A DNA stretch of 64,000 bases, from positions 3,138 through 67,137 of the forward strand of contig NZ_CANMFC010000010.1 in the NCBI RefSeq assembly GCF_947497025.1, in the 5' to 3' direction. The DNA is from an uncultured Kushneria sp. (GTDB taxonomy: Bacteria; Pseudomonadota; Gammaproteobacteria; Pseudomonadales; Halomonadaceae). Below the pieces are notes generated by a model. The model was not told where the DNA came from. It made no database searches and saw only the letters and a list, made by a program, of their open reading frames with translations. Shown piece after piece: positions 1,630 to 59,229 of the stretch; position 1 is the stretch's first letter; each line of letters opens with the position of its first letter. Both the position numbers and the translations under genes were made by a program.

Positions 1630-2457
1630 ATGGCAAGTCAATTGACCTTCATCGGAGCTGGCAATATGGCCAGCGCCATCTTCGGCGGGCTGATCGACAA
1701 TGGCTATCCGGCTGATGCCATTACGGCCACCTCTCCCGATGAGACCATGCTCGAACAGCATCGCGCGCGCTACGGCATTCAGACCACCACTGACAATGCT
1801 GCAGGGGTCAGCGAAGCCGATGTCGTCATTCTGGCCGTCAAGCCACAGATCATGCGTGAGGTGTGCGAGACGATTCAGGAGGCGCTTCAGATCAGCCGTC
1901 CATTGATCATCTCCATTGCCGCCGGCCTCACCATCGATACGCTGGGCCAGTGGCTGGGCGATGACAGCCTGCCCATCGTGCGCTGTATGCCCAACACACC
2001 GGCACTGGTGGGCCAGGGCGCCACCGGCCTGTATGCGTCCCCCGGCCTCGGCGAGCACCACCGCGCCCTGGCCGGCGATCTGCTGTCAGCCGTTGGCATC
2101 ATCGAATGGGTAGAGGAAGAAACCCTGCTCAGTGCCGTGACGGCCATCGCCGGCAGTGCGCCCGCCTACTTCTTCTATATGCTGGAGGCGATGGAAAATG
2201 CCGGCGTGGCACGAGGACTGTCACGTGAGACAGCACGGCGTCTGGCCATTCAGACGGCATTGGGCGCAGCCCATATGGCAAAAGAAAGTGAGCAGGACCC
2301 GAAAACGCTCAAGCAACAGGTCATGTCGCCGAAAGGTACTACGGAGCGCGCCATTGCCAGTTTTGAGCAGGCCGGCTTCGAGAAAATGGTGGATGATGCC
2401 ACACTGGCCTGTTTCGAGCGTGCCGAATCACTGGCACGTGAGCTGCGGGATCAGTAA
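1630..2457 (+). CDS. proC: Pyrroline-5-carboxylate reductase
   Basis: 275 aa with an N-terminal FIGAGNMA Rossmann motif and a C-terminal SPKGTTE motif typical of ProC. Confidence 0.93.
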   Translation: MASQLTFIGAGNMASAIFGGLIDNGYPADAITATSPDETMLEQHRARYGIQTTTDNAAGVSEADVVILAVKPQIMREVCETIQEALQISRPLIISIAAGLTIDTLGQWLGDDSLPIVRCMPNTPALVGQGATGLYASPGLGEHHRALAGDLLSAVGIIEWVEEETLLSAVTAIAGSAPAYFFYMLEAMENAGVARGLSRETARRLAIQTALGAAHMAKESEQDPKTLKQQVMSPKGTTERAIASFEQAGFEKMVDDATLACFERAESLARELRDQ

Positions 2458-2502
2458 ATTCACTGTATCTGTCATCTTGTGACGACATAACGGAGAGTCT
2501 CC

Positions 2503-3084
2503 ATGGGGAGCGCACTGGGCGATACCGGCATCATGCTGGTCAACACCCTGATCAACCTTTATCTGTTTGTGCTGATGCTGCGCTTTTTGCTGCACGCTTC
2601 ACGTGCCGACTACTACAACCCCATCAGCCAGGCGATCGTCAAGGCAACCTCGCCGCTGGTGGCCCCTCTGCAGCGCGTCCTGCGACCTGCCGGTCCCATC
2701 GATATTGCAACGCTTGTGGTCGCGCTGTTGTTCAAGATGGTGGGCATCGCCCTGATCTGCATGGCGATCTTTGGCTTTCCGCCCATCGGGCTTCTGGCCG
2801 TGGCGGCGCTGGCTGGCGTGGTCAACGCCATTTTGAAGATCTATTTCTTTGCCATGATCATCATGATCATTCTGAGCTGGGTCGCGCCTCAGTCCGGCCA
2901 CCCCGGAGCACTGCTGGTGTTTCAGATTACCGAGCCGGTCATGGCGCCGGTACGACGCGTTATCCCTTCGATTGGCATGATTGACCTGTCCCCCATTGTG
3001 GTCTTTTTGCTGATCAACGTACTCGACAGCTTTCTGGTGGGCGCCCTGAGCCGCGCAGCCGGCCCCCTTGCCCCGCTGATTTAA
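2503..3084 (+). CDS. yggT: YggT-family integral membrane protein
   Basis: 193 aa, multi-TM, duplicated YGGT repeat architecture, conserved position after proC. Confidence 0.85.
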   Translation: MGSALGDTGIMLVNTLINLYLFVLMLRFLLHASRADYYNPISQAIVKATSPLVAPLQRVLRPAGPIDIATLVVALLFKMVGIALICMAIFGFPPIGLLAVAALAGVVNAILKIYFFAMIIMIILSWVAPQSGHPGALLVFQITEPVMAPVRRVIPSIGMIDLSPIVVFLLINVLDSFLVGALSRAAGPLAPLI

Positions 3085-3093
3085 GACCTGACA

Positions 3094-3119
3094 GGCTGTC
3101 GTGCCCGCGCACGACAGCC
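3094..3119 (+). terminator. Perfect 11-bp GC-rich hairpin after yggT with no U tract
   Basis: GGCTGTCGTGC-ccgc-GCACGACAGCC lies 10 nt after the yggT stop. It is followed by GC-rich sequence, so it may be a non-canonical terminator or an mRNA-stabilising stem. Confidence 0.3.
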
Positions 3120-3225
3120 GCCCCGCCAGCGCTCGCCACCCGACGTCTGCAACGATATGCTACAGTGCGCCTGCGACGCCGGGCCGCAATTTCGGCCTGC
3201 CCTGTCTGACCGGATTTGAGTGCTG

Positions 3226-4392
3226 ATGCCCGAGACACTGTCTTCTACCTCGGTTGGCCTGGTAACCCCCCAGGTCGCCCGCTTTGATACGCCCCTGCGG
3301 CTTGCCTGTGGCCGTGAACTCCCGGCCTTTGAGCTGGTGTATGAAACCTACGGTACGCTCAACGAAACGGCCAGCAATGCGGTCCTGATCTGCCATGCGC
3401 TGTCGGGTCACCATCATGCTGCCGGCTATCATCATGTCGATGACCGAAAGCCCGGCTGGTGGGATGCTCACATCGGCCCCGGCAAAAGCATCGACACCCG
3501 GCGTTTTTTCGTGATTACGGTCAACAACCTTGGCGGCTGCCACGGCAGTACCGGTCCCTCCAGTGAAAATCCGGCCACCGGCCGTATCTGGGGCCCCGAC
3601 TTTCCGCTCATGACGGTGACCGACTGGGTCAACAGCCAGGCCATGCTGGCTGATCGGCTGGGCATCCAGCGCTTCGCCGCCGTGGTCGGGGGCAGTCTGG
3701 GCGGCATGCAGGTCCTGCAATGGGCCATGAGCCTGCCCGAGCGGGTGGCCAACGCCACCGTCATTGCCGCGACGCCACGGCTTTCGGCACAAAACATTGC
3801 CTTTAATGAAGTGGCGCGCCAGGCCATACGTTCCGACCCCGAGTTCTTCGACGGCTGGTACAGCGAGCATCAGACCCTGCCCAGACAAGGGCTGCGGCTG
3901 GCCCGTATGGTTGGCCATATTACCTATCTCTCGGAACACTCCATGGGCGCGCGCTTCGGACGCGATCTGCGCACCGACAGCCTCAACTATGGCTATGACG
4001 TTGAATTCGAGGTGGAGTCCTATTTGCGCTATCAGGGCGACACCTTCTCGACACGCTTTGATGCCAATACCTATCTGCTGATGACCAAGGCACTTGATTA
4101 CTTCGACCCGGCCGGCGAACACGAGGATGACCTCCCCCGTGCCCTGTCCACGGCGACGTGTCGTTTTCTGGTGGTCAGCTTCACGACCGACTGGCGTTTC
4201 GCGCCGGCCCGGTCACGCGAACTGGTCGATGCGCTACTGCGGGCCGGCAAGCATGTCAGCTATGCCAATATCGACTCCCCCCATGGACATGATGCCTTTC
4301 TGCTACCCAATGAGCGCTATGAGGCCGTATTGGGTGGCTTCATGACGCGTGTTGCCAATGACGTGGAACAGGCTACCGGAGGAAATTCGTGA
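3226..4392 (+). CDS. metX: Homoserine O-acyltransferase, MetX family (acetyl versus succinyl specificity cannot be told from sequence by eye)
   Basis: Alpha/beta hydrolase with GGSLGGMQ nucleophile elbow. The N-terminus [16 protein letters not shown] parallels Pseudomonas MetX. Start moved from GTG 3220 to ATG 3226. Confidence 0.9.
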
Positions 4393-4982
4393 TGCGGGCC
4401 GATCTTGCACTGATTTATGACTGGGTCCCGCATGGCGCTCGCGTTCTGGATCTGGGCTGTGGCGACGGGACCCTGCTGGCAGCGCTCTCGGCGCAAAAGC
4501 AGGTCACGGGCTATGGTCTGGAGATCGACAGCGACGGGATTTCACGCTGTCTTGAAAAGGGCGTGGATGTCATCGAACAGGATCTGGACCAGGGGTTGAC
4601 CAATATTCCCGATGACACCTTCGACCTGGTGATCATGACTCAGGCGCTTCAGGTCCTGAGACGCCCCGACCTGATGCTCGACGAAATGCTGCGGGTCGCC
4701 AATGAATGCATTATTGCCTTCCCCAACTTTGCCTGGTGGCGTCATCGCCTGTCGCTGGGGCTCAAGGGCCGCATGCCGGTATCACGCTCGCTGCCGCATG
4801 CCTGGTACGACACACCCAATATTCACCTGTCGACCTTCCGGGACTTTGCCGATCTGTGCCGCCAGCAGGGGCATACCATCACCGATCAGGCGGTGGGCAA
4901 TGGCAACCGGGAAGGCCAGTGGCGCCACCGACGCTGGCCCAACCTTTTCGGCCAGGATGCCATCTTTCGAGTCAAGCGCTAG
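4392..4982 (+). CDS. metW: Methionine biosynthesis protein MetW
   Basis: [29 protein letters not shown]-methyltransferase-like N-terminus. GGAGG RBS upstream of ATG 4392, which overlaps the metX stop. Confidence 0.9.
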   Translation: MRADLALIYDWVPHGARVLDLGCGDGTLLAALSAQKQVTGYGLEIDSDGISRCLEKGVDVIEQDLDQGLTNIPDDTFDLVIMTQALQVLRRPDLMLDEMLRVANECIIAFPNFAWWRHRLSLGLKGRMPVSRSLPHAWYDTPNIHLSTFRDFADLCRQQGHTITDQAVGNGNREGQWRHRRWPNLFGQDAIFRVKR

Positions 4983-5055
4983 AACAGACGGCTCCGGAAC
5001 CCTGGACTTTGGTATGATCGAGTGATCAATCTGCGACGCCCAGCGAGGCCTGAAC

Positions 5056-5463
5056 ATGAATTTTCATACCCGCAAGTGGATCAAGCCCGAGGATCTCAAC
5101 CCCAATGGGACACTCTTCGGGGGAAGTCTTCTGAAGTGGATCGACGAAGAGGCGGCCATCTATGCGGTCATTCAGCTGGCCAATTCGCGCGTGGTGACCA
5201 AATACATGTCGTCCATCAACTTTGTTTCCAGCGCACGTCAGGGTGACATCATCGAGCTGGGGATTACCGCCACCAGATTCGGCAAGACATCGCTCACCCT
5301 TCACTGCGTGGTCCGCAACAAGATCACCCATAAAAACATCCTGACCATTGATGAGATTGTCTTCGTCAACATGGGCGATGACGGCCGCCCCGCCCCGCAT
5401 GGCAAAACGAAGATCACCTACCTTCGCGATCGCGAGCTGGAAGGTCCCGACAGCGCCACCTGA
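5056..5463 (+). CDS. Acyl-CoA thioesterase, hotdog fold (YciA-like)
   Basis: 135 aa. The NPNGTLFGGSLLKWIDE motif is typical of YciA/4HBT thioesterases. Confidence 0.8.
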   Translation: MNFHTRKWIKPEDLNPNGTLFGGSLLKWIDEEAAIYAVIQLANSRVVTKYMSSINFVSSARQGDIIELGITATRFGKTSLTLHCVVRNKITHKNILTIDEIVFVNMGDDGRPAPHGKTKITYLRDRELEGPDSAT

Positions 5464-5465
5464 AC

Positions 5466-6158
5466 CTAATAAAGGCGGCGATAGTGACAGGCTGTCACTT
5501 GTTCGGGCGTGATCTCACAGCCCAGCATCATGACTTCTACACCGGCCTCGTATGCCATCTGAAAGGTGCGGGCATAGGCAGGATCCAGATGCGCTGCCGG
5601 GCGGACGTCATCAATACCGTCATGGGCGACCAGAAAGACCAGCACTGCCCGATCACCGCCGGCGCGCAGTGCCATCAGTGTTTCCAGATGACGGCGCCCA
5701 CGGGTGCTGACCGAATCCGGGAAGTAGCCACAGTCCCCCTCCTTGAGCGTCACCTGCTTGACCTCCAGCCAGACCGGAACGCCGCCTTCAGGCGTCAGAC
5801 AAAAATCAAGCCTTGAGTCCCCTGCCCTGACCTCACGCTGTAATGTCCACGGCGGCTCGAACGGCAGCAGTGTTCCCGTTTCCAGTGCTTCCTGCACCAG
5901 CGCATTGGCACGCCCGGTATGAATAGAGGCCAACGCCCCATCCGGCAGCTCGATCAGTTCCCAGGTCCATGCCAGACGGCGTTTTGGATTGTCGTGCCAG
6001 GATACCCAGACCCGGCAGCCAGGCACATTAACCGCGCGCATCGAGCCGGTGTTGGGGCAATGCGCGGTAATGATGCGCCCGTCATCAAGGCGGATGTCGG
6101 CCAGAAAGCGTTTATAGCGTGCAATAAGTACGCCCGACCATAGTGGCGGCAACCTCAT
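5466..6158 (-). CDS. sfsA: DNA/RNA nuclease SfsA (sugar fermentation stimulation protein A)
   Basis: The N-terminus (MRLPPLWSGVLIARYKRFLADIRL), the CPNTGSM motif and the C-terminal half match SfsA. Start moved to the internal ATG (6158), which gives the conserved RYKRF N-terminus. Confidence 0.85.
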   Translation of the reverse strand: MRLPPLWSGVLIARYKRFLADIRLDDGRIITAHCPNTGSMRAVNVPGCRVWVSWHDNPKRRLAWTWELIELPDGALASIHTGRANALVQEALETGTLLPFEPPWTLQREVRAGDSRLDFCLTPEGGVPVWLEVKQVTLKEGDCGYFPDSVSTRGRRHLETLMALRAGGDRAVLVFLVAHDGIDDVRPAAHLDPAYARTFQMAYEAGVEVMMLGCEITPEQVTACHYRRLY

Positions 6159-6358
6159 GTTCCCGGCCCCAGCGCCGATACCATGCCTTGAACTATACTC
6201 ATGAGGTGATCTCCAGGCCTGCTGACTTTTGTTGAAACCGGCTTGCAATCGGCATGGATTTCCTATAAATAGCACTACCCTGAATCATGCGATGCGGTAA
6301 TCAGGAACAGTCTTGCGGGCTTACAGCATCGCTATTACCTGCAGTGAGGCAATCTCCC

Positions 6359-6790
6359 ATGGCAGTAGCCGAGACGCAGTCGCCCGATACCTTTAAGCCC
6401 TATGCGCCAACGCCGGGCGAAGAGTACATGAACGAGCAGCAGCTGGCACACTTTCGCCAGATTCTGCTCAACTGGAAAAACGACCTGATGGCAGAGGTTG
6501 ATCGCACCGTTCGTCACCTTCAGGAAGACGCCAACAACTACGCGGATCCTGCCGATCGCGCCACGCAGGAAGAAGGCTTCAATCTCGAGCTTCGCACCCG
6601 TGATCGCGAGCGAAAGCTGCTCAAGAAGATCAACGAGACCATCGAAAAAATCGATGAGGATGACTACGGCTTTTGCGACGCGTGCGGCATCGAAATCGGC
6701 ATCCGACGCCTGGAAGCCCGGCCCACGGCCACACTCTGCGTTGACTGCAAAACGCTGTCGGAATTGAAGGAAAAACAGCTCGGAGGCTGA
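6359..6790 (+). CDS. dksA: RNA polymerase-binding transcription factor DksA
   Basis: C4 zinc finger CDACGIEIGIRRLEARPTATLCVDC and coiled-coil DxxDxA tip (ADPADRATQEE). Start set at ATG 6359 (MAVAETQ...). Confidence 0.92.
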   Translation: MAVAETQSPDTFKPYAPTPGEEYMNEQQLAHFRQILLNWKNDLMAEVDRTVRHLQEDANNYADPADRATQEEGFNLELRTRDRERKLLKKINETIEKIDEDDYGFCDACGIEIGIRRLEARPTATLCVDCKTLSELKEKQLGG

Positions 6791-7705
6791 ATGCCGAGCC
6801 AAAGGCATATTGAACACGGCCCCGCGGTTGTTGGTCGCTTTGCACCAACGCCCTCGGGGCCTTTGCATTTCGGCTCTTTGCTGGCCGCACTGGCGAGCTG
6901 GCTGGATGTCCGCTCAAAAGGCGGCCGCTGGCTGTTGCGCATCGAGGATATCGATCCGCCCCGCTGTCCGCCCGGTGCCAGCGATACCATCATCAAACAG
7001 CTTGACGCCTTCGGCCTTTACCACGATGGCACCGTCGAGTATCAGCATGACCATGATAGCGATTACCAAACGGCGCTGGACGCGCTGGTGGAAGGCGGTA
7101 TGGCCTACCCCTGCAGCTGTTCGCGAAAAGAGTGGCGGCATTTCAGCATCTACCCGGGCTGGTGCCGTCACGGTCCCCTGCATCCCGAGCGAGATGTTGC
7201 CTGGCGACTCAGGACCGATATCGGCGTTCCGGACGTCTGCTGGCAGGACCGACGACTGGGCCATCAGAGCTGGTCATTGCCAGCCCTCGGTGATGTGGTG
7301 CTCAAGCGACGCGATGGGCTATGGGCCTATCAGCTGGCCGTGGTGGTCGATGACGCCCGCCAGGGGATAACGGATATCGTCCGAGGTGCTGACCTACTCG
7401 ACAACACGCCCTGGCAGATTCGACTGCAGCAGGCATTGGGCTATACCACGCCCAGGTATCTCCACCTGCCGCTGGTGGTTGCCGCCAATGGCCAGAAACT
7501 TTCCAAGCAAAACATGGCGCCCGCTCTTCCCCTGCAGGATCACGCCGTTCGCCCACTACTTCACGAAGCCCTCACGCTTCTGGGGCAATCCCCCGAGCCG
7601 GCACTGCGCCATGCATCTGTCAGCAACCAGCTCAGCGCCGCCATTAATAGTTGGCGACCGCACTTTCTGGTTTCTCACAATGTTCAACAAACGACTTCGA
7701 ATTGA
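6791..7705 (+). CDS. gluQ: tRNA glutamyl-Q(34) synthetase GluQRS
   Basis: Truncated GluRS-like catalytic domain: GRFAPTPSGPLHFGS (HIGH-type) and KLSKQ (KMSKS-type). Follows dksA, as in E. coli and Pseudomonas. Confidence 0.9.
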   Translation: MPSQRHIEHGPAVVGRFAPTPSGPLHFGSLLAALASWLDVRSKGGRWLLRIEDIDPPRCPPGASDTIIKQLDAFGLYHDGTVEYQHDHDSDYQTALDALVEGGMAYPCSCSRKEWRHFSIYPGWCRHGPLHPERDVAWRLRTDIGVPDVCWQDRRLGHQSWSLPALGDVVLKRRDGLWAYQLAVVVDDARQGITDIVRGADLLDNTPWQIRLQQALGYTTPRYLHLPLVVAANGQKLSKQNMAPALPLQDHAVRPLLHEALTLLGQSPEPALRHASVSNQLSAAINSWRPHFLVSHNVQQTTSN

Positions 7706-7775
7706 CCACTATCGACCATCGTCGTCTTTTTTTACGCCCCGTTACGCGTATGCTGACCCTAGCCAACGAGGGCAG

Positions 7776-7824
7776 TGCACCAAAAATAAGCACGCACGCG
7801 AAATATTCGCACTTTTTTAGTGCA
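7776..7824 (+). promoter_or_regulatory. Two candidate enhancer-binding-protein sites (NtrC-like TGCACC-N5-GGTGCA dyads) with centres 32 bp apart
   Basis: Site 1 is 7776-7792 TGCACC-aaaaa-TAAGCA. Site 2 is 7808-7824 CGCACT-ttttt-AGTGCA. Their centres are about -162 and -130 relative to the predicted sigma54 start. Confidence 0.35.
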
Positions 7825-7919
7825 AAAATGATTTCTGGAATGTACCGGAACTCATTCTGGACAATGCCAGACCAATTAGATTTTCATAGCACCATGAATT
7901 TGATGGGGTTTTTTTTAGG

Positions 7920-7935
7920 TGGCACGTGTTCTGCA
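7920..7935 (+). promoter_or_regulatory. Sigma54 (-24/-12) promoter
   Basis: TGGCAC-gtgtt-CTGCA versus consensus TGGCAC-N5-TTGCW. GG is at 7921-7922 and GC at 7933-7934, correctly spaced. Predicted +1 is near 7946. Confidence 0.6.
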
Positions 7936-7945
7936 CTAATAGAGT

Positions 7946-8415
7946 CGACTGAAGAAGAATAACAGCGATCACCTGACCGGCTTCCAACAAAAACAATGCC
8001 CGGTGCCGATCGACAACCTTGCACAATAACAATATGAAAAGGTCCGTCATAAACGCGTGGATGAGCTGATAACAACAATAATAATGGCACCATCACGTAC
8101 GAGGCGTTAATAACAACAATAAAGCCCTTTCGTTATCCACAGAATGCGATGTCATTGCAGCGTTGTACGACAATAACAACCCAACCCTGCGACACTCCGG
8201 AACAACAATAAAATCTTCGGAGCAGCCTTGTGGCTGTCGTTATGGAAGATTGTTTTGAATACGAGATGTTCGCAGCCGTTTTAGTACACAAAAACAATAG
8301 ATCACGGCATATTGCGTTTGGTGAACATGGTACGTATTCAGGGCGATGCGCCATCACGAAGAAAAACACAATGCATCATCATTGGCGGGGAGACGAAAAA
8401 TGTCTCCCCGTTTTC
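7946..8415 (+). ncRNA. Candidate CrcZ-type protein-sponging sRNA with nine A-rich CA motifs
   Basis: No credible CDS in this stretch. It lies between the sigma54 promoter (7920-7935) and an intrinsic terminator (8387-8415). AAnAAnAA-type motifs are at 7952, 7986, 8023, 8069, 8109, 8170, 8201, 8288 and 8359. Several sit in loops closed by 5-bp stems (7976-80/8000-04, 8195-99/8218-22, 8275-79/8304-08, 8345-49/8373-77). The locus immediately upstream of pcnB matches Pseudomonas crcZ. Confidence 0.6.
8387..8415 (+). terminator. Rho-independent terminator (proposed 3' end of the sRNA)
   Basis: GGGGAGAC-gaaaaat-GTCTCCCC followed by GTTTTCATT. Confidence 0.7.
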
Positions 8416-8448
8416 ATTACCAAAACCTGACTTGTATGACAGGCTGCT

Positions 8449-8476
8449 TTGCAAGCTTTTGCTGCTCGGCTACACT
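8449..8476 (+). promoter_or_regulatory. Candidate sigma70 promoter for pcnB
   Basis: TTGCAA, 16-nt spacer, TACACT. Located after the terminator and before the conserved PcnB N-terminal region. Confidence 0.35.
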
Positions 8477-8539
8477 GAGCTTCTGATCGGCGTCACGATT
8501 TATCAGGGCGCAGACAGATCGGGACATCATGGCCGTTAT

Positions 8540-9928
8540 TTGATCGGCCTCCCGGAATTTCCATCAGGTCAACATGGCTTCACCTTGACGCCCACCATTC
8601 TTCCCCGCGATCAACATCCCATCTCTCGACGAATGCTCAGCGAAAATGCGCTGAAGGTACTTTATCGTCTCAACCAGGCAGGTTTTGAAGCCTATCTGGT
8701 GGGTGGATGTGTCAGAGATTCTCTTCTTGGGCAAGTGCCCAAGGATTTTGATGTTGCCACCAGTGCCACACCGGAACAGGTTCGCAGCGTCTTTCGCAAT
8801 GCCCGCATGATCGGTCGACGATTTCGCATCGTTCATGTTCGTTTTGGACGTGAAATCATTGAGGTCACCACCTTTCGCGGTGGTCACGATACCGAAATGG
8901 CCGAGCGCCATTCACATCAGTCCGAAGAAGGGCTTTTGCTGCGTGACAACGTCTGGGGCAGTGTCGACGAAGACGCCATGCGTCGCGACTTTACGGTCAA
9001 TGCGCTCTATTACAGCGTGCGTGACTTCGCCATTCACGACTGGACTGGCGGTCTTGAAGACCTTGAGCATCGTGTGCTTCGTCTGATCGGTGACCCGGAC
9101 CTGCGTTACCGTGAAGATCCGGTCCGTATGCTTCGTGCCGTGCGCTTTGCCAGCAAGCTGGATTTTACCCTGGCTGCCGAAACCGAGGCACCGCTGGCAG
9201 ACTGCGCATCACTGCTTTTGCAAATCCCCCCGGCGCGGCTGTTTGAAGAAGTACTCAAGCTCTTTCTGTCCGGTTACGCCCTGAGTACCTTTCACGGACT
9301 TAGACGTCATGGCCTGTTTGCCATGCTGTTTCCGGGTACCGAGGAGTCGCTTGCGCAGCTGAGCTGGGCCGAGAAGATGGTCGAGCAGGCGCTGATCAAT
9401 ACCGATGCGCGTATTCGGGCCGACAAGCCGGTGAGCCCGGCCTTTCTGTATGCCGCTCTGCTCTGGCCGGCCACGGTCGCGCAGACAGCGCAACTGATCA
9501 ATGAGGGTGTGCCACCGGTGCCTGCTGCGCAGCAGGCCTCCCAGCAGGTATTGAACCGTCAGTTGCAGCACACGTCCATCCCCAAGCGCTTCAGCCTGCC
9601 CATGCGCGAAATCTGGGACATGCAACTGATGCTGCCACGACGACGGGGCAAGCGTCCCTATCAGACGCTGGTACATCCACGCTTTCGTGCGGCCTATGAC
9701 TTTTTGCTGCTCAGGGAAACGGCCGGTGAAATAGCTTCGGGGCTTGGCCTCTGGTGGACCCGCTTTCAGGAAGCCAGCGAAACCCAGCAGCGTGAGATGG
9801 TGCAAAAGGCAGAACAGGGTCAGGATGATGTCCCCGTTGATGACGAGGGACCGGAAAGCATGCCCGCCCCTGCCCGCAAGCCCAGACGCCGCCGCAGACG
9901 TCGCGCGCCCCGGGATGACCAGGAATGA
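8540..9928 (+). CDS. pcnB: Poly(A) polymerase I
   Basis: ILPRDQHPISRRMLSENALKVLYRLNQAGFEAYLVGGCVRD and the following sequence are colinear with E. coli PcnB. The end is firm. The start is uncertain: there is no in-frame ATG upstream of the conserved block after the terminator, so in-frame TTG 8540 or TTG 8585 are the candidates (E. coli pcnB also uses a non-ATG start). Confidence 0.85.
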   Translation: MIGLPEFPSGQHGFTLTPTILPRDQHPISRRMLSENALKVLYRLNQAGFEAYLVGGCVRDSLLGQVPKDFDVATSATPEQVRSVFRNARMIGRRFRIVHVRFGREIIEVTTFRGGHDTEMAERHSHQSEEGLLLRDNVWGSVDEDAMRRDFTVNALYYSVRDFAIHDWTGGLEDLEHRVLRLIGDPDLRYREDPVRMLRAVRFASKLDFTLAAETEAPLADCASLLLQIPPARLFEEVLKLFLSGYALSTFHGLRRHGLFAMLFPGTEESLAQLSWAEKMVEQALINTDARIRADKPVSPAFLYAALLWPATVAQTAQLINEGVPPVPAAQQASQQVLNRQLQHTSIPKRFSLPMREIWDMQLMLPRRRGKRPYQTLVHPRFRAAYDFLLLRETAGEIASGLGLWWTRFQEASETQQREMVQKAEQGQDDVPVDDEGPESMPAPARKPRRRRRRRAPRDDQE

Positions 9929-14459: not shown

Positions 14460-14729
14460 TCAGCGACGCAGGCCCAGACGAGAAATGATCTGCTGGTAGC
14501 GATCAAAATTCTTGCGCTTGAGGTAATCCAGCAGCTTGCGGCGCTGGTTAACCATGCGGATCAGACCACGACGCGAGTGATGGTCCTGCTTGTGATCCTT
14601 GAAATGGCTCTGCAGTGTGACGATGTTGTCCGTCAGCAGGGCAATCTGGACTTCCGGCGAGCCGGTGTCGTTTTCAACGGTACCGAATTCCTTGACGATT
14701 TCGGCCTTGCGTTCGGCAGTCAGTGCCAT
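14460..14729 (-). CDS. rpsO: 30S ribosomal protein S15
   Basis: 89-aa [16 protein letters not shown]... Start moved to the internal ATG that gives the canonical S15 length. Confidence 0.95.
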
Positions 14730-14804
14730 GTTACTTCTCCAGTCTAATATGCCTGAGCATTGATAAATGTCGAAGACCACGCATATTTGCAGTCTTCGCG
14801 AACC

Positions 14805-20861: not shown

Positions 20862-20938
<77 letters not shown>

Positions 20939-21013
20939 TCAATAGCGCAATCAGTATAAGGACTTTGTCCTGCCGAATCAACATGATCCGTCTGTCGCGA
21001 CTTGCAGTTCCGA

Positions 21014-21100
21014 TGGTGCCGAAGGCGGGACTTGAACCCGCACGACCATAAGGTCACTACCCCCTCAAGATAGCGTGTCTACCAATTCCACCACTTCGGC
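21014..21100 (-). tRNA. leuU: tRNA-Leu (GAG)
   Basis: 87 nt with a long variable arm and anticodon loop CUUGAGG. Lies downstream of secG, as for E. coli leuU. Confidence 0.9.
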
Positions 21101-54572: not shown

Positions 54573-54954
54573 GGGGGCGTTATGGATTCGACGCCGGTTG
54601 CAGATCCTGAGGTGCATGCCGAGAGCGTAACGTATCTCGTAAATCCCACGTTACTTTAAAATAGTCGCAAATGACGAAAACTATGCTCAAGAGGGCGCGC
54701 TGGCAGCTTAAACCCTGCTGGTAACCTTCTTACCCCGAAGCGATGTGCCTGTTCATCGTAACGGGGCTATGAGCTACAGCTGACAGGATCGTGGTTGGCT
54801 TTGTTCTCGCGTCAACCGCTAAACATTAGAGAGCCCGCTGTATCGGATCCTGCTCGTCGGAGCCGATATGGTTAAACCAAAAGACGAATCTAAGCATGTA
54901 GAGCTGATGGACGAGTGCCGGCGGACGGGGGTTCAACTCCCCCCGCCTCCACCA
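54573..54954 (+). ncRNA. ssrA: tmRNA (SsrA)
   Basis: 5' GGGGGCG pairs with 3' CGCCUCC-ACCA, including the G3-U alanine identity pair, and a T-arm GGGGGTTCAACTCCCCC is present. The tag reading frame from GCA 54667 to TAA 54709-54711 encodes ANDENYAQEGALAA. Confidence 0.95.
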
Positions 54955-58271: not shown

Positions 58272-58303
58272 AAAAAGGGAGCTGCCGATGGCAGCTCCCT
58301 TTA
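58272..58303. terminator. Bidirectional terminator shared by the Yip1 gene and csp
   Basis: AAAAA-GGGAGCTGCC-gat-GGCAGCTCCC-TTTA. Confidence 0.75.
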
Positions 58304-58325
58304 CAGTAGAATTTAATCTACCGAC

Positions 58326-58529
58326 TTACTCGGGGCGGATTGCAGAAGCCTGCAGACCTTTTTTACCCTGAGTAACGTTGAAGGAGACCTTCTGGCCTTC
58401 CTGCAGCGACTTGAAACCTTCTGCCTGAATCTCGGAGAAGTGTGCGAACAGATCGTCGCCACCGTCGTCAGGAGAAATAAAACCGAAGCCTTTGCTGTCG
58501 TTGAACCACTTAACAGTGCCAGTTGCCAT
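58326..58529 (-). CDS. Cold-shock protein, CspA family
   Basis: 67 aa with RNP1 KGFGFI and RNP2 LFAHF motifs. Confidence 0.95.
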
Positions 58530-58911
58530 GCTTTTGATACCTGTGCAATAAATTAATGATGGTTAGCCCATTGTGGGCAAAAACAAGATAGCCATTCATA
58601 TGCTCTCGACAGGATCGATTACAACTGACGATATACTGCCTTGTTCACCATCTAGATCATAGTGCACCTATCGCTTTACCGGGTCAAGTAACCCTTTGGT
58701 AGGGGGTATGCGATACGAACAAGATGAACACTCCGTATAACGGAAAAACGAAGGGAGGTCAACAAAATCCGAATATTTAAAACCAGACGCGACATGCATG
58801 GCGTCCGGATCGGGCAATGGCATGAAAACCGGATGGTCTGCTCAACGTCTTTATTCGAACCAACAGGCGCTGCCGATCGTTGCGATCAGCACCTGGCCGG
58901 TCATTTACCTA

Positions 58912-58971: not shown

Positions 58972-59047
<76 letters not shown>

Positions 59048-59073
59048 ATATTCAGAATGCATGCAGACTGAAA

Positions 59074-59148
59074 TGGCTGGGGTACCAGGACTCGAACCTG
59101 GGAATGCCGATACCAAAAACCGGTGCCTTACCACTTGGCTATACCCCA
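59074..59148 (-). tRNA. tRNA-Gln (UUG)
   Basis: 75 nt, TGGGGTATAGCCAAGTGGTAAGGCACCGGTTTTTGGTATCGG..., close to E. coli tRNA-Gln(UUG). Confidence 0.9.
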
Positions 59149-59153
59149 GCAGA

Positions 59154-59229
59154 TGGTGGCCAGAGACGGAATCGAACCGCCGACACGGGGATTTTCAATC
59201 CCCTGCTCTACCGACTGAGCTATCTGGCC
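59154..59229 (-). tRNA. tRNA-Phe (GAA)
   Basis: 76 nt, GGCCAGATAGCTCAGTCGGTAGAGCAGGGGATTGAAAATCCCC..., with an encoded CCA. Confidence 0.9.

Follow-up and report, generated by a model that had tools for sequence, protein, structure and literature searches.

A predicted sigma-54-driven, CrcZ-like RNA gene between gluQ and pcnB in Kushneria, with homologues in other Halomonadaceae

What occupies the long gap between gluQ and pcnB in Kushneria? The question is raised by a 64,000-nt stretch of DNA from an uncultured Kushneria sp. (Halomonadaceae; contig NZ_CANMFC010000010.1), which we analyzed as a whole and refer to as the window. Its gene order is sfsA (on the - strand), dksA, gluQ, the gap, pcnB, folK, panB, and panC, and its PcnB shares 98% identity with that of Kushneria phyllosphaerae and 82 to 94% with those of five further Kushneria species. 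An earlier inspection of the letters, the sequence-only reading, had proposed that the gap specifies a CrcZ-type, sigma-54-driven, multi-motif RNA just 5' of pcnB. CrcZ is a sigma-54- and CbrB-dependent RNA with A-rich motifs, which titrates Hfq/Crc (PMC8871633, PMC5815094). That proposal is supported by homologues, by synteny with cbrB, by CbrB half-sites in relatives, and by covarying stems, and we consider it probable that positions 7947-8414 encode a stand-alone sigma-54-driven RNA serving as a CrcZ-like Hfq decoy, the Halomonadaceae counterpart of crcZ, with its activator encoded elsewhere.

The gene is delimited by the following features.

7947-8414, + strand: RNA gene of about 468 nt
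7920-7935, + strand: sigma-54 (-24/-12) promoter TGGCACGTGTTCTGCA, with a T-tract 5' of it
8386-8414, + strand: intrinsic terminator, CGGGGAGAC-GAAAAAT-GTCTCCCCG followed by TTTT

The promoter, already located by the sequence-only reading, has the form TGGCAC-N5-CTGCA with GG-N10-GC spacing, and TGGCAC-N5-YTGCW is matched nowhere else in the window; by these elements it is predicted to be sigma-54 (RpoN) dependent. Of 80 related loci, 78 have a predicted promoter of this kind (GG-N10-GC, scoring 17 or more out of 19) 300 to 830 nt 5' of pcnB. Because the Rfam CrcZ model starts 12 nt past the promoter 16-mer in all three control loci, the RNA start is predicted, by analogy with Pseudomonas CrcZ, at 7947; the start proposed earlier thus keeps its place after the promoter and moves by a single nucleotide from 7946. 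The strong terminator that had been suspected is found at 8386-8414, both in the minimum free energy (MFE) fold and by RNAalifold, as a 9-bp G+C-rich stem (8386-8394/8402-8410) followed by TTTT at 8411-8414. Relatives keep the stem with compensatory changes, GAGAC/GTCTC becoming GAGGCC/GGCCTC in K. aurantia, with further cases in Salinicola and Cobetia. A simple terminator scan of the window does not list it. Two other candidate sites were set aside: one reported by a simple finder at 8256, where the T-run belongs to the conserved core helix and lacks a proper preceding terminator hairpin, and a terminator-like site at 7798-7810 that is not kept in other Kushneria.

The RNA gene has a G+C content of 45%, as against 58.7% for the window, and an nhmmer profile built from seven Kushneria sequences finds its sole match in the window at 7953-8415 (E 3.8e-114). 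When the seven Kushneria gaps are aligned, the promoter, all nine of the A-rich motifs described below, blocks at about 8230-8275 and about 8320-8365, and the terminator are conserved, and the DNA from gluQ to the promoter is far more variable than the RNA gene. Judging from these sequence comparisons, together with the fold z-score and the non-coding pattern of substitution given below, the gene at 7947-8414 specifies a structured, non-coding RNA and is present as a single copy.

The A-rich motifs were all read in the sequence where they had first been noticed, in nine blocks at 7952-7964, 7986-7996, 8023-8034, 8069-8084, 8109-8123, 8170-8180, 8201-8213, 8288-8299, and 8359-8371. The early impression of a strand bias is also borne out: the 64-kb window holds 12 copies of AAYAAYAA, all on the + strand and none on the - strand, and 10 of them lie within 8025-8211, whereas shuffled sequences average 2.24 copies and never exceed 6. 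Three of the blocks are to be noted individually.

7952-7964, + strand: motif 1, AAGAAGAATAACA, in the unpaired 5' leader of the MFE fold
8069-8084, + strand: motif 4, ATAACAACAATAATAA, with five triplets; its closing stem is weak in the window strain, relatives having a clear one (GAGCTG/CGGCTC and others)
8359-8371, + strand: motif 9, AAGAAAAACACAA, in a single-stranded linker 5' of the terminator region in the MFE fold

In the MFE fold, seven of the nine blocks fall within hairpin loops. Those of motifs 2, 3, 7, and 8 are closed by stems of 5 to 7 bp, in agreement with the earlier count of at least four loops on 5-bp stems, and that of motif 6 by stacked 4-bp helices. Each loop presents three to five A-R-N (ARN) triplets, and ARN repeats are what the distal face of Hfq binds. 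A relaxed ARN pattern yields nine blocks in the window RNA versus 6 to 7 in the CrcZ loci of Pseudomonas and Halopseudomonas; the number nine therefore stands, and the contrast with five to six that had been drawn from it was overstated.

The stems that carry these loops, and the 3' domain that follows them, are as follows.

7967-8011, + strand: hairpin 2, with motif 2 in a 16-nt loop, an ACCGGC/GCCCGGT stem, and an outer GATC/GATC helix (MFE fold and stems of relatives)
8016-8043, + strand: hairpin 3, with motif 3 in the loop and an ACCTT/AAGGT stem (MFE fold and stems of relatives)
8101-8133, + strand: hairpin 5, with motif 5 in the loop (MFE fold; covariation in covariance-model helix 1)
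8149-8194, + strand: hairpin 6, stacked 4-bp helices TGTC/GACA, GCAG/CTGC, and GTTG/CAAC, with motif 6 in the loop (MFE fold; covariance-model helices 3-5)
8195-8222, + strand: hairpin 7, with a 7-bp stem CTCCGGA/TTCGGAG and motif 7 in a 14-nt loop (MFE fold; covariance-model helix 6)
8237-8359, + strand: 3' core domain, a long irregular helix including ATTGTTTTGAATACG (8250-8264) paired with CGTATTCAGGGCGAT (8333-8347) (RNAalifold on 18 sequences)
8275-8308, + strand: hairpin 8, GCCGT/ACGGC, atop the 3' core and carrying motif 8 (fold)

The MFE of 7946-8418 is -126.6 kcal/mol (z = -2.79). Of 119 motif blocks, 55% lie in the loop of a simple hairpin whose stem has 5 bp or more, versus 14% when their 14-nt flanks are shuffled, and raising the minimum to 6 bp gives 39% versus 5%. 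The loop-closing stems vary in sequence between genera and keep their complementarity; thus, hairpin 7 is closed by CUCCGGA/UUCGGAG in Kushneria, UUCCCGG/CCGGGAA in Salinicola, ACCCCCGA/UCGGGGGU in Cobetia, and UCCCGAUG/CAUCGGGA in Terasakiispira. The gluQ-pcnB spacers of relatives accordingly behave as the sequence-only reading had anticipated, with motifs conserved in Kushneria and stems that change in a compensatory way between genera. Hairpins 5-7 of six Kushneria sequences were used to build a covariance model of 135 positions, which locates the orthologous segment again in Salinicola and Cobetia; in the resulting alignment, which is fitted to the structure, 89% of cells pair (61% in shuffles and 38 to 47% with slid partners), double changes are seen in 32 of 33 pairs, and the covariation score is 0.529 against a maximum of 0.125. 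Compensatory changes affect all seven pairs of hairpin 7. These figures lean towards structure, and folds of the single sequences, which are independent of the alignment, agree. A MAFFT alignment of hairpin 7 alone is out of register between genera and was left out of the counts; similarly, RNAalifold on a MAFFT alignment of the 18 full RNAs recovers only the 3' helix and the terminator, the 5' hairpins being out of register.

The RNA is found at full length in six Halomonadaceae genera, Kushneria, Salinicola, Cobetia, Terasakiispira, Halomonas, and Chromohalobacter, with nhmmer matches of E 1e-15 to 1e-42 in Salinicola, Cobetia, and Terasakiispira, 1.5e-59 in Halomonas, and 7.2e-69 in Chromohalobacter. 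The signature of the family is a core of the form ATTGTTTTGAATACGAG ... CGTATTCA(G/A)GGCGAT, which the window RNA shares. In Terasakiispira, Halomonas, Chromohalobacter, and Cobetia, the homologue lies directly 3' of cbrB and 5' of pcnB, and in the first two cbrA also stands 5' of cbrB. Since the cbrB-pcnB gaps of Halomonas and Chromohalobacter hold clear homologues, the Kushneria RNA is homologous to the occupant of the crcZ slot in its own family. With its REC, AAA+, and HTH domains and a C-terminus near-identical to that of Pseudomonas CbrB, the Cobetia protein is a genuine CbrB, and among its Halomonadaceae orthologues several bear the NCBI label "two-component system response regulator CbrB." These labels are at odds with a 2022 review, according to which CbrAB and the cbrA-cbrB-crcZ arrangement are unique to the Pseudomonadaceae (PMC8871633). 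Moreover, each cbrB-bearing locus, those of Cobetia, Terasakiispira, Halomonas, and Chromohalobacter included, carries the published CbrB sub-sites (TGTTAC and GTAACA; PMC6296734) between about -90 and -150.

A wider comparison of the locus places the Kushneria arrangement in a series. The cbrA-cbrB pair lies upstream in Pseudomonas, Halopseudomonas, Microbulbifer, Gilvimarinus, Motiliproteus, and Terasakiispira; the order gluQ-cbrB, without cbrA, is seen in Marinomonas, Cobetia, and Chromohalobacter; and in Halomonas shantousis, dksA-gluQ is followed by a 59-codon open reading frame (ORF), cbrX-like by position, and then by cbrA-cbrB. The gluQ-RNA-pcnB order of Kushneria and Salinicola looks like the final stage of successive deletions at this locus (the loci compared span 1915-6383 in Halomonas, 3974-6365 in Chromohalobacter, and 125-2806 in Cobetia). 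In more than 80 loci, pcnB is the sole invariant neighbor of the sigma-54/ARN-rich RNA, the upstream gene varying (cbrB, or gluQ in Kushneria and Salinicola), and ARN-rich sequence follows the sigma-54 promoter in the representative loci inspected. Based on synteny, promoter, and architecture, rather than on alignable sequence, the Kushneria RNA is probably orthologous to crcZ.

Taking the mechanism of Pseudomonas CrcZ as the model (PMC5815094, PMC8871633), we propose that the sigma-54 promoter would transcribe an RNA of about 470 nt that ends at the intrinsic terminator. Its approximately nine (A-R-N)n tracts, mostly held in the loops of short hairpins, could be decoys that the Hfq distal face binds with high affinity, perhaps jointly with Crc should the genome encode it, and with so many tracts one RNA could hold several Hfq hexamers. 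Upon activation of the promoter, the RNA would accumulate and soak up Hfq, and this titration would release mRNAs that are otherwise kept untranslated via similar A-rich sites near their ribosome-binding sites. That catabolite repression of the Hfq/Crc type is at work in Kushneria, as the sequence-only reading went on to suggest, would be a further prediction.

Several observations weigh against this proposal. The Rfam CrcZ model, RF01675, which might have been expected to recognize the RNA, has no match in the window at its gathering threshold (95 bits) and none in 7650-8650 even at E <=10; at the same permissive cutoff, it also misses the six Halomonadaceae homologue loci. The model does find CrcZ just 5' of pcnB in Pseudomonas asuensis, P. 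fluvialis, and Halopseudomonas pachastrellae (293, 268, and 137.5 bits, respectively). Because it detects these controls and no Halomonadaceae homologue, the Kushneria RNA is a positional counterpart of CrcZ that forms a sequence family of its own, and RF01675 is too narrow to annotate the Halomonadaceae RNAs; a search of Rfam 15 likewise returns no family matching the Kushneria RNA. Conversely, the Halomonadaceae nhmmer profile gives nothing significant in Pseudomonas, Microbulbifer, Gilvimarinus, Motiliproteus, or Marinomonas. In Marinomonas, there is a weak, position-consistent resemblance in the core block (TGGAAAATCGCTTTGGATA vs. TGGATTATTGTTTTGAATA), which is suggestive only. When the 18 homologues are folded independently, the unpaired probability is 0.82 to 0.95 for motif bases, 0.31 to 0.38 for other bases, and 0.48 to 0.66 for other adenines, in line with the expectation that the motifs would be mostly unpaired; A-rich loops being intrinsically unpaired, such values are weak evidence when taken alone, an objection that the flank-shuffle and covariation controls answer in part.

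A further difficulty for a pure sponge lies in the 3' helix at 8237-8359, for which it does not account. Its arms, ATTGTTTTGAATACGAG and GCGTATTCA(G/A)GGCGATGCGCCATCACGAA, are near-invariant across six genera, far above the conservation of the ARN hairpins and beyond what base-pairing needs, as might be expected of a processing site or of contact with a sequence-specific partner. As for the protein partners, crc and hfq are present neither in the window nor in the related loci examined for them, and the Crc protein searches (query 100% identical to PDB 4JG3), with the best 120 of 935 and 120 of 652 matches considered, include none named as Halomonadaceae, the matches being Pseudomonas-like, Endozoicomonas, or unnamed proteins. 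Hfq itself is, to our knowledge, near-universal in Gammaproteobacteria. The literature that could be searched describes CrcZ-type RNAs in no organisms other than Pseudomonas and Azotobacter, and it yielded nothing relevant linking CrcZ or CbrB with Halomonas. Finally, the window has no CbrB-like or other NtrC-family gene, gluQ being the upstream gene, and the same arrangement, with gluQ upstream and cbrB not at the locus, recurs in the other Kushneria and the Salinicola loci. The 240 nt that precede the promoter contain neither TGTTAC nor GTAACA in the window, in five of six other Kushneria species, or in six of six Salinicola (the comparison covered six of nine Salinicola loci and seven Kushneria including the window).

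These last findings bear on the input to the RNA rather than on its nature. As Kushneria and Salinicola have lost both cbrB from the locus and the half-sites for CbrB, the activator would be an enhancer-binding protein encoded elsewhere, and the signal that feeds the RNA in Kushneria may be other than CbrAB. Upstream of the promoter, two candidate sites for such a protein were noted.

7776-7792, + strand: upstream dyad 1, TGCACCAAAAATAAGCA, TGC-N11-GCA, about 162 nt before the predicted start (upstream comparison and conservation)
7808-7824, + strand: upstream dyad 2, CGCACTTTTTTAGTGCA, GCAC-N7-GTGC (7809-7823), about 130 nt before the start; in the same place in six of seven Kushneria, with variable flanks

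One possibility, which we entertain tentatively, is that the Kushneria and Salinicola RNA has been uncoupled from CbrAB and captured by another NtrC-family activator, possibly NtrC itself, such that Hfq availability would follow nitrogen or some other signal. All cbrB-adjacent loci carry TGTTAC/GTAACA, and the six Salinicola and six of the seven Kushneria examined lack these half-sites along with cbrB; the sigma-54 promoter nevertheless remains intact, which calls for some activator. At the position of dyad 1, Halomonas, Chromohalobacter, and Cobetia have (T/C)GCACCA(G/A)TTGTTAC, and the same site runs from TGCACCAGTTGTTAC in Halomonas through TGCACCACAATCAGGCA in Salinicola to TGCACCAAAAATAAGCA in Kushneria, whereby a TGC-N11-GCA dyad is created at the old F-site position; dyad 1 is a candidate enhancer site for a sigma-54 activator. 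The center of dyad 2 lies 32 bp from that of dyad 1, and in half-sites and spacing the two resemble the classical NtrC arrangement, TGCACC-N5-GGTGCA sites set three turns apart. Furthermore, among the best 120 of 7999 relatives of Cobetia CbrB, there is no Kushneria or Salinicola protein, with dozens of other Halomonadaceae genera present. On the other hand, cbrB could have moved elsewhere in the genome, of which 64 kb is in view; GCAC-N7-GTGC is not enriched in the window (2 found, 2.5 expected); and TGCACCA is ancestral, standing beside TGTTAC in Halomonas too, so that the dyads might just as well have diverged from CbrB sites and serve a CbrB-like protein now encoded elsewhere.

The decoy reading, whichever activator drives it, has also to be set against a role in cis. 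That the A-rich region is mainly a leader or read-through transcript controlling pcnB, which encodes poly(A) polymerase I, would fit the constancy of pcnB as a neighbor whatever lies upstream, the short distance to the pcnB start, and the functional link between Hfq and poly(A) polymerase I in E. coli. We nonetheless regard it as unlikely, because the strong terminator, conserved with compensatory changes, is followed by what is likely a promoter of pcnB itself.

8450-8477, + strand: TTGCAA-N16-TACACT, predicted sigma-70 promoter of pcnB (conservation)

This element, between the terminator and pcnB, is kept in Kushneria, Salinicola, Cobetia, Halomonas, and Chromohalobacter and implies that pcnB would be transcribed apart from the RNA; a promoter scan lists none in the region upstream of pcnB, TTGCAA-N16-TACACT scoring 8 of 12 where 9 are required. 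In addition, Pseudomonas CrcZ, at the same position, is documented as trans-acting (PMC8871633). Even so, the linkage of the RNA to pcnB, unbroken across all lineages, is striking.

It is less likely still that the RNA is a decoy for a protein other than Hfq, whether a sponge of the CsrA/RsmA type or a ligand of ribosomal protein S1 or another binder of A- or CA-rich RNA. The multi-hairpin, multi-motif layout does recall RsmY/RsmZ/CsrB, and the invariant 3' helix could point to a further sequence-specific partner. However, the RNA has only five GGA triplets, all base-paired in the MFE fold and none in a loop, which makes a CsrA/Rsm-type sponge improbable; the conserved loop motif AAYAAYAA is an ARN repeat, the ligand of the Hfq distal face; and a search of the RNA and its homologues for Rsm/Csr families returned nothing except a 28-nt terminator-like match in Cobetia.

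That 7947-8414 is a small protein gene or a decaying pseudogene can be practically dismissed, for, although the region allows ORFs of 58 to 110 codons, the variable columns of the Kushneria alignment show no three-base periodicity (49/62/46 by codon phase), indels that are not multiples of three number 6 to 14 against each of five other Kushneria species (a single 1-nt indel against the closest), the longest ORF differs between species, that of the window (8230-8430) being disrupted by a 2-nt indel, no conserved frame with third-position bias was found in the seven-Kushneria comparison, and conservation tracks helices and loops rather than codons, all of which agrees with the earlier judgment that the gap holds no credible coding sequence.

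Around the RNA gene, the window offers a few further features.

7703-7705: gluQ stop codon
7713-7733, + strand: weak hairpin CGAC/GTCG and seven-T run directly 3' of the gluQ stop (read in the sequence; function predicted)

The hairpin and T-run could be a terminator of dksA-gluQ; they lie in a block, 7708-7736, that is near-invariant across the seven aligned Kushneria and is possibly a weak terminator or a protein-binding site. On the other side, the conserved N-terminus of PcnB has no in-frame ATG nearby (8540-8600), and the start candidates are TTG at 8540, TTG at 8585, or an ATT codon. The E. coli pcnB gene starts with ATT. Other Rfam matches in the window comprise a tmRNA, a cspA thermoregulator-like 5' region (80.7 bits, barely over threshold), a ribosomal S15 leader, and five tRNAs, in the regions 54573-54954 (+), 58272-58666 (-), 14673-14800 (-), 58975-59229 (-), and 20865-21100 (-). 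In the Kushneria aurantia locus (8140-8276), 3' of the pan genes, there are sub-threshold RsmY-like, istR-like, and rnk-leader-like matches (21 to 25 bits, E 0.1 to 6), which may be due to chance or to an unrelated small RNA.

In several marine polysaccharide degraders, similar sigma-54/ARN RNAs occupy the same slot, and some loci show variant forms. An Oceanicoccus metagenome-assembled genome (MAG) has tandem sigma-54 promoters 5' of pcnB (3162-3300 and 3672-3800), with a short run of ARN-rich sequence and then a GC-rich, terminator-like stem-loop after each; the two units look like a duplicated mini-sponge pair. In Gilvimarinus xylanilyticus (3390-3770), the RNA consists of repeated AATAACAACAACAAACAATAA modules with little predicted stem structure, and the genus has 17 to 22 overlapping AAYAAYAA per 500 nt. 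A Pseudomonadales MAG (3706-3800) has a version of only about 90 nt with two blocks.

What is new here is the sequence family and, in one lineage, the loss of the regulator that usually drives it; the function is of a known kind, and no new principle is involved. Hfq/Crc catabolite repression and CrcZ have been treated as a Pseudomonas speciality, and the evidence points to a counterpart RNA throughout the Halomonadaceae. Some members of this family are halophiles exploited industrially to make ectoine and polyhydroxyalkanoates, an application in which substrate preference matters. A single small gene, together with the profile that detects it, would offer a handle on the hierarchy of carbon sources in these organisms. 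The cbrAB-crcZ-pcnB module could be ancestral to much of the GTDB Pseudomonadales (Halomonadaceae, Microbulbifer, Gilvimarinus, Motiliproteus, Marinomonas, and others) instead of an invention of the Pseudomonadaceae; if so, its RNA has diverged into families missed by current models. Kushneria and Salinicola would amount to a natural experiment in which the sponge outlives the loss of its cognate two-component system.

Among known systems, RsmY, RsmZ, and CsrB share with the Kushneria RNA an array of short hairpins that repeats the same protein-binding motif in each loop, in their case to titrate a global translational repressor; their motif, however, is GGA for CsrA/RsmA, whereas the Kushneria loops present ARN, and GGA is rare and paired. 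NrsZ, an NtrC/sigma-54-dependent small RNA of P. aeruginosa, offers a possible parallel in input, given the sigma-54 promoter and NtrC-type upstream dyads; it differs in that it adjoins ntrBC, base-pairs, is processed into repeats, and lacks an ARN-loop array. CrcY and CrcX (P. putida, P. fluorescens, and P. syringae) are likewise sigma-54/CbrB-dependent, carry several A-rich motifs, and are redundant with CrcZ (PMC8871633), but they are paralogues at other loci, whereas the Kushneria RNA occupies the crcZ locus proper and has no second copy within the 64 kb. From CrcZ of Pseudomonas and Azotobacter, the Kushneria RNA departs in escaping RF01675, with nhmmer profiles failing in either direction, in its different conserved core (the 3' helix at 8237-8359), in its nine blocks as opposed to 6 to 7, and, along with Salinicola, in the lack of an adjacent cbrB and of TGTTAC/GTAACA. 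It is like CrcZ in lying directly 5' of pcnB, and 3' of cbrB in those relatives that keep cbrB, in being a stand-alone gene within a size range of 370 to 540 nt with a sigma-54 promoter, a predicted start 12 nt past the -12 element, and an intrinsic terminator, and in displaying several unpaired AAnAAnAA/ARN tracts.

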